A model generated the notes under the pieces. That model worked only from the letters and a program-made list of their open reading frames with translations. It was not told the DNA's origin and did not search any database. Source: a virus. From it: 24,006 nt of DNA. The stretch lies in UHGV virus genome UHGV-1462358; one strand, written 5' to 3'. Shown piece after piece: positions 7,150-21,473 of this stretch. Each line of letters opens with the position of its first letter. The stretch's first letter is position 1. The translations under genes were made by a program, and so were the position numbers.

Positions 7150-7194
7150 CTTCCCCCAGTGGCCCTGTCGGGCCACCTTTCTGGAGTATTTCCC

Positions 7195-7620
7195 ATGACA
7201 GAAAAAGAAAAGCTGGTCGCCCGCCTGAATGAACTTGGGACCCAGCTTAACCGCGAGGTCAGTACCAGCGGCACCATTCAGGAACTGACGATGCGTATTG
7301 CTGAGCTTGAAGAGGAACTGGATGGCAATGCCGGGTCAGTTGACGGTGAAAACGGCGTGCAGAATGCTTCCGACAGCACCGACAGCACCGACAGCACCGA
7401 CAGCACCGACAACAATGTTGCTAACGTGGCAAAAGTAAAAACGGAATCGGCCACAACGGGTGACCTGGTATCAGTAGAAACGCTGGCCACCCTGCATATT
7501 GACGCTCTGCATGCCACGCGTAACGAGCCGGTATCTATCGTAGAGCCTGGTGTGATTATCCGCGTATCTGAACAGGATGCCGACGACTTGATCGCAAAGG
7601 GGCTGGCTTTCGAAGTCTGA
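7195..7620 (+). CDS. FI: DNA-packaging/head assembly protein (lambda gpFI homolog)
   Basis: Start moved from the track's GTG at 7159 to ATG at 7195, preceded by GGAG; MTEKEKLVARLNELGTQLNREV parallels the lambda FI N-terminus. The C-terminal LATLHIDALHATRNEPV motif also matches lambda FI as recalled. Confidence 0.8.
   Translation: MTEKEKLVARLNELGTQLNREVSTSGTIQELTMRIAELEEELDGNAGSVDGENGVQNASDSTDSTDSTDSTDNNVANVAKVKTESATTGDLVSVETLATLHIDALHATRNEPVSIVEPGVIIRVSEQDADDLIAKGLAFEV
7372..7410 (+). repeat. Perfect 9-bp tandem repeat (GACAGCACC x4.3) inside FI, encoding (DST)n linker
   Basis: GACAGCACC repeated four times plus GAC, directly visible at 7372-7410. Encodes DSTDSTDSTDSTD in the acidic linker between the FI N- and C-terminal domains. 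Confidence 0.9.
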
Positions 7621-8950: not shown

Positions 8951-9688
8951 ATGGCCACACCAAACCCGCTGGCACCAACAAAAGGTGCTGGTACCACCCT
9001 CTGGGTTTACACCGGAACTGGTGATCCATACGCCAATCCGCTTTCAGACGTTGACTGGCTGCGCCTGGCAAAGATTAAAGACCTGCAGCCCGGAGAACTG
9101 ACAGCTGAATCGGAAGATGACACCTACATCGATGATGAGAATGCCGACTGGACATCAACGATGCAGGGGCAGAAATCAGCCGGTGAAACAAACCTGACGC
9201 TCGCATGGATGCCGGAGGATTCCGGTCAGCAGGACCTGGTGAACTGGTTCGATGAAGGCACCGTGAAGGGGTATAAAATCAAATATCCGAATGGTGTTGT
9301 CGATGTCTTTAAGGGCTGGGTGAGCAGTCTCGGCAAGACCATCTCGTCTAAAGAGGTCATGACCCGCACGGCAAAAATCACCAACAATGGCAAACCATCG
9401 CTGGCCGAAGACAGTGGTACCGCGCCGATTGCCGTTACGGGGATCAGCCTGGATAAATCCACGGCGGCTGTGGCTGTCGCGGCCACGACGCAACTGGTTG
9501 TTTCTGTCCTGCCAGCAAGTGCTTCAGATAAGTCTTTCCGCGTAGCCAGTTCTGATCCGTCAAAAGCAACGGTCACCGTCAGCGGCAATACCCTGACTGT
9601 TACCGGCGTGGCGGCAGGCACCGTCGAGATCATCGTAATGAGCAATGACGGTAACTTTGTGGCGATCTGCAAAGTCACTGTTTCCTGA
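8951..9688 (+). CDS. V: Major tail tube protein (lambda gpV homolog) with C-terminal Ig-like (Big_2-type) domain
   Basis: 245 aa versus 246 for lambda gpV. The C-terminal ~90 aa ([15 protein letters not shown]...[23 protein letters not shown]...) has the alternating beta-strand pattern of a bacterial Ig-like domain, as in lambda gpV. Confidence 0.95.
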
Positions 9689-9692
9689 TAAC

Positions 9693-9708
9693 CGGGGCGA
9701 AAGCCCCG
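9693..9708 (+). other. GC stem-loop with GAAA tetraloop just downstream of V (possible mRNA stabiliser or weak attenuator)
   Basis: CGGGGC-GAAA-GCCCCG at 9693-9708, 5 nt after the V stop. Only two T follow, so it is not a canonical intrinsic terminator. Confidence 0.35.
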
Positions 9709-9724
9709 TTCCCCCGGAGTAATT

Positions 9725-10147
9725 ATGTTTCTAAAGAGCGAGCTGCTTGAAAGTAACGGCAGCAGCGTCACATTGTTCCAGCTGTCGGCGCTGCAGCGTA
9801 TTGAATACCTCGAATACCTGAAACAACTTGAGGCGGTTGAAGCTGGTGATTTTCAGGCTGCCATTACCCTTACCGTGAAGAGTGGAGCATATCTGGTGGC
9901 AATGTCACTCTGGCATGGCCACGCGCTTAAAGGATCGCAGGGAGAAAACGCGGCGGCGGAAGTGGAGCAGATTCAGGATGAGGTCATGCAGACATGGCCG
10001 ACCGAACTTGTTGCCGAAGCCGAATATAAGGTGAAACTCCTGTCCGGGATGATTGCGCCGGTCACTGATGACCAGGCTGAGCCCGGTGAAGAACGTAATG
10101 AACCCGCTGAACCTGTTACTGCGGAAAAGCCCTCGCCAGTGAGCTGA
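9725..10147 (+). CDS. G: Tail assembly chaperone (lambda gpG homolog)
   Basis: 140 aa, same as lambda gpG. Acidic C-terminus. Syntenic position between V and H. Confidence 0.9.
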   Translation: MFLKSELLESNGSSVTLFQLSALQRIEYLEYLKQLEAVEAGDFQAAITLTVKSGAYLVAMSLWHGHALKGSQGENAAAEVEQIQDEVMQTWPTELVAEAEYKVKLLSGMIAPVTDDQAEPGEERNEPAEPVTAEKPSPVS

Positions 10148-10476
10148 AGTTTGCCATGAAACTGGCGCGTGAGTTCGGTCGCCCGGACTGGCGTGCCATG
10201 CTTGCTGGCATGTCCTCAACGGAATACGGCGACTGGAAAATCTTCTACCAGGACAATTACTTTCATGATGCGCAGCTGGATGCTCATTTCTCCGGTTTGC
10301 TCTACACCATCTCAACCCTGTTTTTTGCTGATCCGGAATTAACACCGGACAGTTTCAGCATCCTTTCCCCTGTATCGGAAAGCATCGACGTTGATGAGCC
10401 GGATGACGATACGCTGATGGCGAAGGCTGCAGGTATTTCAGGAGGCGTGCGCTATGGCCCAGACGGCAGTGGGTGA
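9725..10476 (+). CDS. T: Tail assembly chaperone G-T fusion made by programmed -1 ribosomal frameshift near 10123-10129 (T part ends at 10476)
   Basis: The -1 frame is open from the stop at 10108-10110 through 10476 and encodes MKLAREFGRPDWRAMLAGMSSTEYGDWKIFYQDNYFHD, matching lambda gpT as recalled. The only slippery run in the open overlap is G-GAA-AAG (10123-10129); lambda uses G-GGA-AAG. Confidence 0.65.
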
Positions 10477-12970
10477 TCTGGTCGTTAACCTTGACGTTAA
10501 CTCGACGAAATTTAACGAGCAGCTTAACTACGTCAAAAAAGAATTAAAGCAGACTGGCAGCGCGGCGAACGACGAAGCGCTACGGATCCAGCAGTCCTTT
10601 AGCCGCCAGGAGAACGCCGCGCGCAAGGCGGGTATTTCAATAGGCCAGTATAACGCAGCAATGCGTATGCTTCCGGCGCAGTTTACCGATATAGCTACGC
10701 AGCTAGCGGGCGGGCAGAACCCATGGCTGATTCTGCTTCAGCAGGGCGGTCAGGTTAAGGACTCCTTTGGCGGGATAATACCAACATTCAGGGCCTTACT
10801 GGGTACGATCTCACCGTTGATGGTCGGCATCGGTGCGCTGTCCGCCGCAACGGGTGCGCTGTTCTATGCCTGGTACCAGGGCTCATCCACACTATCTGAC
10901 TTCAACAAAACGCTGGTACTGTCGGGGAACACGGCCGGATTGACTGCCGATCGTATGTTGGCGCTGGCACGAAACGGCCAGGCAGCGGGGCTGACGTTCA
11001 ATCAGACCAGCGAAGCCCTGAGCGAGCTTATCAACGCGGGGGTGGGCGCGAGTTCGCGCTTTGATGAAATGAGCCAGGCGGTGGCGCGATTTACTGATGC
11101 CTCCGGCGTGCCGGTGGAAAAAGTCGCAGCCGCATACGGCAAGCTCACTACTGACCCTACATCAGGCCTGATCGCGATGGCTCAGCAGTTCCACAACGTT
11201 ACGGCCGAACAGATTGCCCATGTGGCACAGCTGCAGCGTGCCGGTGATGAGGCTGGCGCACTGCAGGCGGCTAATCAGGCTGCTACTGCCGGATTCAACG
11301 ATCAGACCAAGGCCATCCGCGACAATATGGGGACGATTGAGTCTTCAGCGGATTCCCTGAAGCGTGCCTTCAAGTCGATGTGGGATGCTGCACTTGATAT
11401 TGGCAGACCTGACACCGCCCAGGAGATGGTGGCAAAAGCCCAGGCCGCGTTTAAAAAGGCTGATGAAATCTGGAACCTGCGTAAAGGTGACCGATATGTC
11501 AATGATGAGGCTCGCGCCCGATTCTGGAATGACCGCGAAACGGCCAGGCTTGCGCTGGATATGGCGCAGCAGCAGGCGGGAATTGCCATGGCGAACGAAG
11601 AGAATGCATCGCGCGAAGCGGCTGCGGAATCGGATCGCCAGAAGTATGCTGCGCAGGCACAGGCAAACTATGCCAAAACGCAGACGGCACTGGAGAAATA
11701 CACGGCCAGGCAGAGCGAGCTCAACAAGGCGCTGAAAGAGGGGCGGATCCTCCAGGCTGACTACAACATCAACCTGGCTGCCGCGAAAAAAGAGTACGAA
11801 GACACCCTTAAAAAGCCGAAGAAAACACCTGCAGTCAGGACTCCTGCCGGTACCCGTGCAACCGATGCGGCCAGCGCCCAGACGATGGAGCTGGAAGCAC
11901 AGCTGCGCACCCTGCAGGAGCATAAGGGGATAAATGACACCATCAGCCAGCAGCGTCAGGAGCTGTGGCGTAAGCAGTCCCGTTTTACGGTTCTGGAAGA
12001 GGCCGCGAAGACCCGGACGCTTTCTGCCGAGGAAAAATCCCTGCTGGCCAGTAAAAGCGAGGTGCTTTCCCGTGCGGAGCTGAACGCGAAGCTCGGCGAT
12101 CAGATAGTGGCGCAGGAGCGGCTTAATCGCCTGCAGGATACGTCCCAAAAATACGTCACGCAGATCGGCGAGAAAACCCGAGCCCTGGCGGAAAGTGCTG
12201 GTATGAGCAGTCGTGCAGCACAACGCCGCAACGAGGAGGCCCAGCTTCTTCAGGGGTGGAAAAATGGTGGAGGTTCCGAAAACGATGCCGGTTATCAGAA
12301 TGAGCTGCAGGGGCTGCATGCGTATTACGCCGAGCAGGATAAGCTTCGGGGTGACTGGCAATCCGGAGCCAAATCCGCATGGGCAGATTATGTTGATTCT
12401 GCTTCTGATGCTTATGGCCAGATGAAGTCGTTTGCCAGCAGTACGTTTGATGGCATTGGGCAAAATATGGCTGACATGCTGACGCGCGGAAAGGCTGACT
12501 GGGCTGACTTCACCCGCTCCACGCTCTCCATGCTGACACAGATCCTGCTGAAACAGGCGATGGTAGGCCTGGTGGATTCAGCATCAACCGCGCTGGGATT
12601 TGCAGGTGGCGGTTATACCGGTTCAGGCGGGAAATATGAGCCAGCAGGTGTCGTTCACCGTGGTGAGTTTGTTTTCACCAAAGAGGCTACCAGCAGGATC
12701 GGCGTCGGCAATCTTTACCGGATGATGAAAGGCTATGCAACGGGAGGGTATGTCGGGGGCGGTGGTACAGGCCCGGCTGCAGCACCTTTCGGTGTCAGTG
12801 TGTATGCCCCGGTGACGGTCGAGAATGCTTCCGGTAACGCACAGCAGCAAAACGACGGAGACAGGCTGGGTAAGGCGTATCAGCAGGTGATTAACAAATC
12901 TGTCAATGATGGTATCGCTAGGGCAATCCAGCCCGGTGGGCTTATCTGGAATGCGACCAATCGCAGGTAA
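10454..12970 (+). CDS. H: Tail tape measure protein (lambda gpH homolog)
   Basis: 838 aa versus 853 for lambda gpH. Ala/Gln-rich predicted coiled-coil body and Gly-rich C-terminus. ATG at 10454 preceded by GGAGG, overlapping the T 3' end. Confidence 0.95.
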   Translation: MAQTAVGDLVVNLDVNSTKFNEQLNYVKKELKQTGSAANDEALRIQQSFSRQENAARKAGISIGQYNAAMRMLPAQFTDIATQLAGGQNPWLILLQQGGQVKDSFGGIIPTFRALLGTISPLMVGIGALSAATGALFYAWYQGSSTLSDFNKTLVLSGNTAGLTADRMLALARNGQAAGLTFNQTSEALSELINAGVGASSRFDEMSQAVARFTDASGVPVEKVAAAYGKLTTDPTSGLIAMAQQFHNVTAEQIAHVAQLQRAGDEAGALQAANQAATAGFNDQTKAIRDNMGTIESSADSLKRAFKSMWDAALDIGRPDTAQEMVAKAQAAFKKADEIWNLRKGDRYVNDEARARFWNDRETARLALDMAQQQAGIAMANEENASREAAAESDRQKYAAQAQANYAKTQTALEKYTARQSELNKALKEGRILQADYNINLAAAKKEYEDTLKKPKKTPAVRTPAGTRATDAASAQTMELEAQLRTLQEHKGINDTISQQRQELWRKQSRFTVLEEAAKTRTLSAEEKSLLASKSEVLSRAELNAKLGDQIVAQERLNRLQDTSQKYVTQIGEKTRALAESAGMSSRAAQRRNEEAQLLQGWKNGGGSENDAGYQNELQGLHAYYAEQDKLRGDWQSGAKSAWADYVDSASDAYGQMKSFASSTFDGIGQNMADMLTRGKADWADFTRSTLSMLTQILLKQAMVGLVDSASTALGFAGGGYTGSGGKYEPAGVVHRGEFVFTKEATSRIGVGNLYRMMKGYATGGYVGGGGTGPAAAPFGVSVYAPVTVENASGNAQQQNDGDRLGKAYQQVINKSVNDGIARAIQPGGLIWNATNRR

Positions 12971-13323: not shown

Positions 13324-14075
13324 GTCTTAATGCTGATTATCAAAAACTTGAGCCGGGCAATGAAGTCCGGCTTTTTTCTGTCGATGGTACAGCGTTCGGT
13401 ATGTCAGATGTGCTCCGCTTCCACGCACACAATATCGCGCACACCCCGGAAGAGATTGAAGCCGCAGGCGGCGACGAGAATAAACTTCCGGCGAAGTCCA
13501 TCTGGTGGCAGGGGGAGGAGTATAAAGCCTGGCCGTGTCAGGTTGAGGGTATTGAAGCGACCACGGATGGTACCAGCCCACAGCCAAAACTGAGGGTGGC
13601 GAACCTGGACAGCTCGATCTCAGCGCTCTGTCTGGCGTATGACGATCTGCTGCAGGCGAAAGTGAGTATCCACGACACGCTGGCACAGTATCTGGACGCC
13701 AGAAATTTTCCGCAGGGCAATCCCACTGCAGACCCGTCACAGGAAAAGCTGAAGGTCTTTTATATCGATGCCAGAAGCACCGAGACGGATGAAGTTGTCG
13801 AATTTACGCTTTCCAGTCCGATGGATTTACAGGGCCAGATGATTCCGACGCGTCAGCTGCATTCGTTATGCAGCTGGTGCATCCGGAACAAGTACCGGAC
13901 CGGCGACGGCTGCGACTATGCCGGAACGCGCTATTTCGACAAAAACAATAATCCGGTTGACGATCCCTCGCTGGATGTCTGCAACGGCACGCTGACGGCC
14001 TGCAAGCTCCGGCACGGAGACAGCAACGAACTGCCGTTCGGCGGTTTCCCGGGTACATCTCTTATCAGGAGCTGA
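13320..14075 (+). CDS. L: Minor tail protein (lambda gpL homolog), probable Fe-S cluster cysteines at C-terminus
   Basis: 251 aa. ATGA overlap with the M stop. C-terminal cysteine cluster (CSWC...GDGCDY...C...C) as in lambda gpL. Confidence 0.9.
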   Translation: MSLNADYQKLEPGNEVRLFSVDGTAFGMSDVLRFHAHNIAHTPEEIEAAGGDENKLPAKSIWWQGEEYKAWPCQVEGIEATTDGTSPQPKLRVANLDSSISALCLAYDDLLQAKVSIHDTLAQYLDARNFPQGNPTADPSQEKLKVFYIDARSTETDEVVEFTLSSPMDLQGQMIPTRQLHSLCSWCIRNKYRTGDGCDYAGTRYFDKNNNPVDDPSLDVCNGTLTACKLRHGDSNELPFGGFPGTSLIRS

Positions 14076-20363: not shown

Positions 20364-21473
20364 ATGCTTTATAACACAGGAACTATCTCTATTAACGGAA
20401 ATACCGCAACCGGATCCGGTACAAACTGGACTGCACCGGCCAGCCAGGTTCGCGCTGGCCAGACGATTATTGTCATGTCTAACCCGGTTCAGATGTTCCA
20501 GATTTCATCCGTGAATAGCGCCACGTCAATGACGGTAACGCCTGCTGCATCACCGGCGCTGAGCGGCCAGAAGTACGGCATTCTGGTATCAGACAATATC
20601 TCGGTTGATGGGCTGGCGCTGGCCATGTCGCAGCTTATCAAGGAGTATGACGAGAATATTGGTGCGTGGGAGACGTTCGCCACAACCTCAGCCAACCAGA
20701 ACATTACCGTTACGATCAATGGCACCAGTTTATCAATCCCGGCTCTTGGGAAATTACTGCAGAAGGGGAGCAACGGAGCTTTGCCGGTTAATCAAGGTGG
20801 TACCGGCGCAACGAATGCCGCAGACGCTCGCACAAACCTTGGTTTAGGAAGTAGTGCGACAAAGGATGTCGGAACTGCGGCAGGGAATGTTATGCAGGTG
20901 GGAGCTTTTGGGGTTGGTGCTGCTCTCCAAAATAAGCCCACAGATGCCAGTTCATCCTTCATCAGTGATGCTGCTGGCAATACTCTGTGGGCTCCTGCGA
21001 ATGGCTGTGGGTTTCAGAGTTCCTACACCGAGCAGCGAATTGCGCAGCTGTGGATTACTTACGGTGGTGCGATATTCAGCCGTTTTCTAACAACCACTGA
21101 TGACCCTCAAACACCAAAATCATCAGTGCCGTGGGCGCAGCTGCAGTCTGCAGGTACATCGGACATAAATTTCAAGAAGGTTACTGGAGAACTTAATTTA
21201 GAAGTGTCTCTGGCCAACATCGTGGCAATGGATTTTAAGACCTTCTACTACCTTGCTGATGAAGAGAAAACGATACGCCGAGGTGTTGTTGCTCAGGAAC
21301 TGGAAAAGATAGATCCGCAATATGTTCACTCGGCTGAGGAGTCGGGGAAAATGACCCTAGACCTCAATCCTCTGGTGCTCGATGCGCTGGCGGCAATCAA
21401 AGAGCTGGCAATCCGCGTCAGCGCATTAGAGGGCGACGCTAAATCTCCGGCTTCTGGCTCATCCGCTGGTTAA
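20364..21473 (+). CDS. Side tail fibre protein: constant N-terminal part (to ~20840) fused to the variable part currently in the expressed orientation; C-terminal intramolecular chaperone-like (peptidase S74-type) domain
   Basis: ATG at 20364 with GGAGA RBS; the track's 20319 start runs through the terminator hairpin. GGTGATNAADARTNLGLGSSAT hinge motif is typical of phage tail fibres. C-terminal ...FKTFYYLADEE..GVVAQELEKIDPQYV...LVLDALAAIKELAIRVSALE fits the self-cleaving chaperone domain pattern. Confidence 0.75.
   Translation: MLYNTGTISINGNTATGSGTNWTAPASQVRAGQTIIVMSNPVQMFQISSVNSATSMTVTPAASPALSGQKYGILVSDNISVDGLALAMSQLIKEYDENIGAWETFATTSANQNITVTINGTSLSIPALGKLLQKGSNGALPVNQGGTGATNAADARTNLGLGSSATKDVGTAAGNVMQVGAFGVGAALQNKPTDASSSFISDAAGNTLWAPANGCGFQSSYTEQRIAQLWITYGGAIFSRFLTTTDDPQTPKSSVPWAQLQSAGTSDINFKKVTGELNLEVSLANIVAMDFKTFYYLADEEKTIRRGVVAQELEKIDPQYVHSAEESGKMTLDLNPLVLDALAAIKELAIRVSALEGDAKSPASGSSAG
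20827..20852. repeat. Left recombination site (gix/hix-like 26-bp site) of the invertible segment
   Basis: CTCGCACAAACC-TT-GGTTTAGGAAGT: dyad-symmetric AAACC-NN-GGTTT centre, as in hix/gix sites as recalled. Inner half matches the inner half of the right site at 10 of 12 positions. Confidence 0.6.

Follow-up and report, generated by a model that had tools for sequence, protein, structure and literature searches.

The G and T genes of this phage very probably form a lambda/N15-type pair of tail assembly chaperone genes with a programmed −1 ribosomal frameshift site, which would be the slippery heptamer G_GAA_AAG in the short overlap between the two reading frames. The window (the whole stretch of viral DNA analysed, 24,006 nucleotides of UHGV virus genome UHGV-1462358) carries this overlap between genes for the tail tube and tape measure proteins (Table 1). 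The site is already known: it is the same as that of phage N15, where it has been annotated since the N15 genome was deposited. Its pattern of conservation among homologous phages and prophages indicates selection acting on the nucleotide sequence of the heptamer.

Organization and earlier annotation of the G-T pair

The gene order in this part of the window is V-G-T-H, as in lambda, with a second, overlapping open reading frame (ORF) in the −1 frame. The G product matches Phage_TAC_2 (PF06894), the Pfam family of lambda gpG, over its full length (E 6.5e-52), and is 46% identical to lambda gpG in an end-to-end alignment in which PAEPVTAEKPSPVS stands opposite PAEPVSAGKCSTVS. The −1 ORF matches Phage_tail_T (PF06223) with an E-value of about 4e-13 (4.2e-13), and T is 63% identical to lambda T. 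The counterpart of the upstream tail tube gene in the mEp237 record is the major tail protein V, and the tape measure gene downstream shares 23 nt with the end of T. The sequence features by which a lambda-type G/GT pair is recognized were found here, namely the gene order, homology to gpG and gpT, a conserved slippery site in phase and a T frame devoid of a conserved start yet under selection from the slip site onward.

Table 1 Features of the tail gene region in the window
Feature	Position	Strand	Evidence
Major tail tube protein gene, lambda V-like, C-terminal Ig-like domain	8951..9688	+	Pfam Phage_TTP_12 E 3e-69, Big_2 E 2.5e-21
Gene G, tail assembly chaperone (very probable), 140 aa, 0-frame product	9725..10147	+	Pfam PF06894 Phage_TAC_2
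TGA stop in the −1 (T) frame; upstream limit of the possible shift region	10108..10110	+	
Slippery heptamer G_GAA_AAG (putative shift site)	10123..10129	+	N15 and LLS annotations; conserved in homologues
T part of the predicted GT fusion, −1 frame, 115 codons starting ALASELKFAMKLAREF..., stop 10474-10476	10129..10476	+	
Predicted branched RNA hairpin, 75 nt, possible frameshift stimulator	10135..10209	+	Folding
Tape measure protein gene, lambda H-like	10454..12970	+	Pfam TMP_2 E 5e-71, Tape_meas_lam_C E 8e-23

Translation of both frames ends the G ORF in ...PVTAEKPSPVS, with the stop at 10145-10147, and leaves the −1 frame open for 122 codons past the TGA, up to 10476. The overlap comprises 12 sense codons of G plus the G stop, and reads GAA CCT GTT ACT GCG GAA AAG CCC TCG CCA GTG AGC TGA in the 0 frame. 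Within it, the heptamer lies on the codons GCG GAA AAG, which puts the glutamate codon GAA in the P site and the lysine codon AAG in the A site. When every codon of the overlap was checked, the AAG at 10127-10129 was the sole one to keep its first two pairs on its −1 codon, and an in-phase scan of the identical mEp237 copy returned GGAAAAG as the sole overlap heptamer with a YYY triplet.

The original prediction, made from the sequence of this phage, had confined the shift to the stretch past this TGA, named the heptamer as the only slippery run there and set it one base apart from the G_GGA_AAG of lambda. Translation of both frames agrees with the first of these claims and the codon-by-codon check with the second, and the one-base difference was likewise borne out. 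The expected junction peptide needed correction, as it had been given two lysines (...TAEK/K). The codon that follows a slip on AAG is GCC (10129-10131), hence the junction would read ...TAEK-ALASELKFAMK with a single lysine, in a predicted GT protein of 135 + 115 = 250 amino acids.

Closely related phages share this arrangement. The window as a whole is a mosaic of the mEp237/N15/HK225 group, and its G-T DNA is 100% identical to that of mEp237 and Phi06_2987, 92% to N15 and 91% to HK225. Genes 14/15 of N15 and their counterparts in mEp237, HK225, phi80 and LLS have the same gene order and carry GGAAAAG at the same codon. In N15, HK225 and mEp237 a TGA in the identical place also precedes the open −1 frame, whereas the overlap is longer in phi80 and LLS; compared with the N15 group, the locus studied here shows no substantive difference. 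The N15 record (GenBank AF064539) holds a misc_feature, "slippery sequence for -1 translational frameshift", which corresponds to 10123-10129 of the window and has the identical seven bases, and the record of phage LLS (PQ299149) contains a joined CDS with the note "minus-one programmed translational frameshift site GGAAAAG". In the records of mEp237 and HK225 the T CDS is drawn from an internal ATG, and the frameshift appears in names or notes alone. At another locus (L166, NZ_CP026399.1 16804-17118), equivalent to 10156-10470 of the window, RefSeq/PGAP calls T a pseudogene from the internal ATG, with the wording 'incomplete; partial in the middle of a contig; missing C-terminus'.

In the searchable literature we found no paper that discusses the GGAAAAG frameshift heptamer or tail frameshifting in N15 or phi80, and no frameshift product of any GGAAAAG-type phage, this one included. 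The paper on phi80 tail-assembly interference (Tai) contains nothing on G/GT.

Two neighbouring features were also observed. Between the V stop and the G start, at 9692-9709, lies a GC-rich stem-loop with a GAAA loop (CGGGGC GAAA GCCCCG), followed by no T run; the N15 record lists it as a putative rho-independent terminator and the HK225 record as a stem_loop. This element might reduce expression of G, T and H relative to V. Further upstream, after the major capsid gene, a 153-aa ORF (7159-7620) contains a tandem DSTDSTDSTDSTD repeat in its translation, and its product looks like a head accessory protein with a variable-length repeat.

Conservation of the heptamer among homologues

Three sources supplied homologous loci, namely annotated phages, bacterial genomes (one per species) and IMG/VR viral contigs, and the G/T overlap was placed by script. 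An in-phase NNNAAAR heptamer is present in this overlap at 165 of the 166 loci so placed, the exception being degenerate; heptamer positions 4-6 were used to find the site, and their invariance is partly by construction. The loci yielded 118 distinct 127-nt regions, a sample biased toward relatives of the window. GGAAAAG accounts for 102 of these regions. The lambda-type GGGAAAG follows with five, GGTAAAG with four, GGCAAAA and GGGAAAA with two each, and AAAAAAG, AAAAAAA and AGAAAAG with one each.

The original prediction had proposed comparison with homologous prophages, and the comparison made here with phages and prophages recovers the same heptamer at the homologous place in those 102 regions. 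GGAAAAG is thus not unusual for this family: in this sample, drawn around the relatives of the window, it is the majority form and GGGAAAG the minority. It is spread over the Enterobacterales, with examples in Escherichia, Shigella, Salmonella (Fels-1), Citrobacter, Enterobacter, Kluyvera, Klebsiella, Kosakonia, Phytobacter, Rahnella and Providencia, and among independently sequenced phages in N15, HK225, mEp237, phi80, LLS, mEp043, Flotzy and Fels-1.

Constraint on the heptamer is visible at positions where the G protein would allow change. The codon that precedes it encodes Ala, Leu, Pro, Val or Thr, and its final base, heptamer position 1, is G in all 102 GGAAAAG regions and in 115 of the 118 regions when all heptamer types are counted. 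The lysine codon is AAG, not AAA, in 113 of the 118 regions; AAA is the generally preferred lysine codon. Entropy at the synonymous positions 1 and 7 is 0.17 and 0.25 bits, as against 1.3-1.9 bits at upstream G-frame third positions. Position 3 takes A, G, T or C within the family, so that on these alignments the family consensus would be close to G_GNA_AAR, with position 3 free.

As a bare string, GGAAAAG is present in 6 copies in the window, with 3.4 expected; judged from sequence comparison, it stands above chance in phase, position and conservation, and not as a bare string. Two further copies of G_GAA_AAG lie in phase in plus-strand genes, at 13742-13748 (gene L) and 21302-21308, where the −1 reading closes after 14 and 9 codons. 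The heptamer alone is probably tolerated, being weak or harmless outside its context.

Among the rarer types, GGTAAAG, GGCAAAA, AAAAAAA and AGAAAAG come from loci of Pantoea (L077-L080), Kluyvera and Ewingella (L074/L076) and Oceanimonas (L085), and from L111. The lambda-type heptamer and overlap were also seen on a set of short contigs, many near 1x coverage (L029-L041, L045, L059, L063, L084), labelled Neobacillus, Oceanobacillus, Pseudomonas, Kitasatospora, Shewanella, Paenibacillus, Enterococcus and others. These contigs are most likely lambda DNA contamination or spike-in, which inflates raw GGGAAAG counts.

Probable slippage, expected efficiency and predicted RNA structure

In lambda, the tape measure protein is the binding partner of G, recruitment of the tube protein falls to the T domain, and the ratio is near 30:1 (PMC5009743). 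By homology, most ribosomes on the transcript studied here would read G to its stop and release the 140-aa chaperone, and a small fraction would slip by −1 on G_GAA_AAG with tRNA-Glu in the P site and tRNA-Lys in the A site. The lysine tRNA would re-pair from AAG to AAA, its better-bound codon. The glutamate tRNA would re-pair from GAA to GGA, keeping the first (G-C) and third (A-S) pairs and exchanging the middle A-U for G.U. Reading would then continue in the −1 frame from GCC at 10129 to 10476 and give the 250-aa G-T fusion, of which the G part would bind the tape measure protein and the T part recruit the tail tube protein. The G:GT ratio would be set by the frequency of the slip.

The decoding apparatus of E. 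coli suits such a shift. Its single tRNA-Lys, with anticodon UUU carrying mnm5s2U34, decodes both AAG and AAA (PMC5009743), and A_AAG far outdoes all other tetramers in its tendency to shift in this host because tRNA-Lys pairs better with AAA than with AAG (PMC4066793). The anticodons concerned are CUS for tRNA-Glu and UUS for tRNA-Lys, where S is mnm5s2U (PMC6787027 Suppl. Table 3). Measured against the strict X_XXY_YYZ form, positions 4-6 (10126-10128) are AAA as the A site of that form has it, whereas positions 1-3 are G, G and A and leave a G.U middle pair after the shift. The original prediction had treated this middle-position change from GAA to GGA as a mismatch. The change itself was confirmed; it is not a clash, as the G comes to lie opposite U35 in a G.U wobble between two unchanged pairs. 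The re-pairing in the P site is near-cognate, and "G_GA" is a known intermediate between hexamer and full heptamer sites (Atkins et al. review, PMC5009743).

We infer that the two tRNAs slip in tandem rather than tRNA-Lys alone, since the near-invariant G at synonymous position 1 argues for a role of the P-site tRNA. As position 3 varies among A, G, T and C in the family, the P site does not strictly need to re-pair at its middle position. The alternative, which would yield the same protein, is that tRNA-Lys slips by itself on A_AAG, as at the hexamer-type sites of IS1222 (G_CGA_AAG) and Bacillus cdd (A_CGA_AAG). A_AAG alone does support a −1 shift in E. coli (PMC4066793, PMC5009743), the dnaX variants A_GAA_AAG, A_ACA_AAG and A_AUA_AAG still reach 20-29% (PMC6787027), and the P-site codons GTA and GCA of the Pantoea, Kluyvera and Ewingella loci cannot re-pair at position 2. 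However, position 1 is kept as G in 115 of the 118 regions while the residue it belongs to changes among five amino acids, which fits selection for first-position re-pairing in the P site, and tetramers that lack a stimulator hardly rise over background in E. coli (PMC4066793). We consider slippage of tRNA-Lys alone unlikely, with an appreciable share of the probability left to it.

With tandem slippage as the preferred reading, the efficiency of the site can be estimated from measured heptamers. For dnaX in vivo, Tsuchihashi and Brown obtained 81% with the wild-type A_AAA_AAG, 57% with G_GGA_AAG, 20% with A_GAA_AAG, 22% with A_ACA_AAG and 29% with A_AUA_AAG (PMC6787027 Suppl. Table 3). The A_GAA_AAG mutant shares the A-site codon, tRNA-Lys and the P-site GAA with the present site and differs in having A rather than G at position 1, where it pairs worse; G_GAA_AAG has one mismatch fewer because position 1 stays G-C. 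By this analogy, G_GAA_AAG would work at between about one third of the efficiency of the lambda-type heptamer and an equal level in the same context, which suggests a value within a few-fold of the ~4% of lambda. The dnaX signal differs from the present one in that a strong SD-like element lies on its 5' side and a stem-loop on its 3' side.

The comparison with lambda (G_GGA_AAG, about 4%) can be made codon by codon, as PAEPVTAEK here aligns with PAEPVSAGK there. Both sites share the A-site change from AAG to AAA. In the P site, lambda has the glycine codon GGA, whose re-pairing alters the wobble pair from A to G at a cost to tRNA-Gly of 3.8 kJ/mol (PMC6787027 Suppl. Table 3); the site studied here has the glutamate codon GAA, which avoids this cost and takes a middle G.U pair. 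Both slipping tRNAs at the present site, Glu and Lys, carry mnm5s2U34 according to the same anticodon data (PMC6787027). The two bases 3' of the heptamer are CC, as against UG in lambda, and a 3' CC is the most shift-prone context reported for A_AAA_AAG (PMC5009743). More distant parallels are IS1222 and Bacillus cdd, which likewise combine a non-canonical P-site codon with a slippery A-site codon (PMC5009743) in other genes and hosts, and the 'G_GA' sites of insect flaviviruses, umbraviruses, dianthoviruses and mesoniviruses (class in PMC5009743), which are read by eukaryotic ribosomes and have strong 3' structures.

Slippage may be helped by the 3' CC context or by a predicted hairpin that starts 5 nt 3' of the heptamer and has an outer helix formed between 10135-10144 and 10200-10209. 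Folding of the 100 nt that follow the heptamer gives a minimum free energy (MFE) of −46.4 kcal/mol, with a z-score of −4.26 against dinucleotide shuffles; under synonymous-codon resampling with the T protein kept, the z-score of the hairpin is −2.8. N15, HK225, lambda, VT1-Sakai and one prophage each of Entomohabitans and Buttiauxella have the same architecture as their MFE fold, and at least 8 of the 10 outer-helix pairs form in 68 of 94 distinct sequences. One pair covaries among the relatives, lambda included: it joins the first position of a Ser/Gly codon to the third position of an Ala codon 68 nt away, and among the 70 sequences with at least 7 of 10 outer-helix pairs it is A-U 57 times and G-C 13 times; intermediates are absent, and a neighbour-joining tree places three joint changes.

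Other measures point the opposite way. Among 154 coding windows from the local genes, the region comes only 5th by the same z-score. Applied to 33 diverse homologues, RNAalifold returned virtually no consensus structure (−1.4 kcal/mol), the pair counts for the fold of the window were 69.0% as against 66.6% in shuffles, with slid controls similar on some measures, and the 48-nt segment just after the site showed no stability beyond shuffles (z −0.5). Sharma et al. had found the hairpin of the gpG cluster no more structured than its surroundings and judged it not relevant. These folding results are no more than suggestive of the branched hairpin as a frameshift stimulator in this phage; a family-wide stimulator is not claimed, given the lack of an RNAalifold consensus and pair counts barely above those of shuffles. 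An Rfam scan of 9900-10500 returned chance-level matches only, below gathering scores, and no SD-like sequence was seen by reading the 17 nt upstream of the heptamer. The idea that downstream stability compensates for the non-canonical heptamer was rejected as inconsistent, with z-scores of +1.8 and +0.1 at the GGAAAAG loci of Providencia and Buttiauxella.

A more far-reaching reading would make G_GNA_AAG the real consensus and lambda the exception, with the weak P-site pairing of GGAAAAG offset by the 3' CC and by the branched hairpin 5 nt downstream as a hitherto undescribed stimulator. Both slipping tRNAs carry mnm5s2U34, and 2-thiolation by the host (TusA/MnmA) would in that case affect the G:GT ratio doubly, more strongly than in lambda. 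We regard this reading as distinctly doubtful.

The start of T and its consequences

Across the alignment, the variable columns shift at the heptamer from G-frame to T-frame third positions, though the G frame runs five codons further. Invariant T-frame residues, E5, L6 and F8, set in immediately behind the heptamer and precede the ATG at 10156. Together with the conserved synonymous sites, this switch of frame and these residues show that ribosomes read the T frame from the heptamer on.

This bears on whether T could be made alone from the ATG at 10156, with no need of a frameshift. Such an ATG is present, and the mEp237, HK225 and PGAP records begin the T CDS at it. However, it is poorly conserved: its first base is A in only 48 of the 118 regions, and the codon is CTG in phi80, LLS, mEp043, lambda and VT1-Sakai. 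No Shine-Dalgarno-like sequence was seen upstream of it on reading the sequence, conservation of the T frame reaches past it up to the heptamer, and the T of lambda is made only as the GT fusion (PMC5009743). An independently made T is thus highly improbable, and its initiation at this ATG is excluded as the main explanation.

The sequencing error raised by the original prediction, with the A at 10125 standing for the third G of a true GGGAAAG, fits the single-base difference from lambda, as would a recent mutation of GGGAAAG or RNA polymerase slippage on the A run. These readings keep a practically negligible probability. Many genera and several phages sequenced independently of one another share GGAAAAG, in 102 distinct sequences, with hardly any variation at positions 1 and 7 and with the frame switch at the heptamer; a run of four A is, moreover, far below the lengths known for transcriptional slippage. 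The preferred reading therefore remains that of a genuine G_GAA_AAG shift site.

Our understanding of the mechanism is unchanged by these results; their bearing is on annotation and on the phage itself. Annotation pipelines still miss the site, as in the truncated pseudogene called by PGAP, and several phage records use the internal ATG. Strict X_XXY_YYZ motif searches (Sharma et al. 2014) would miss what is the commonest form among the sampled relatives. The G:GT ratio is thought to be critical for the right tail length, and the heptamer and its efficiency would thus affect phage fitness as well as genome annotation.
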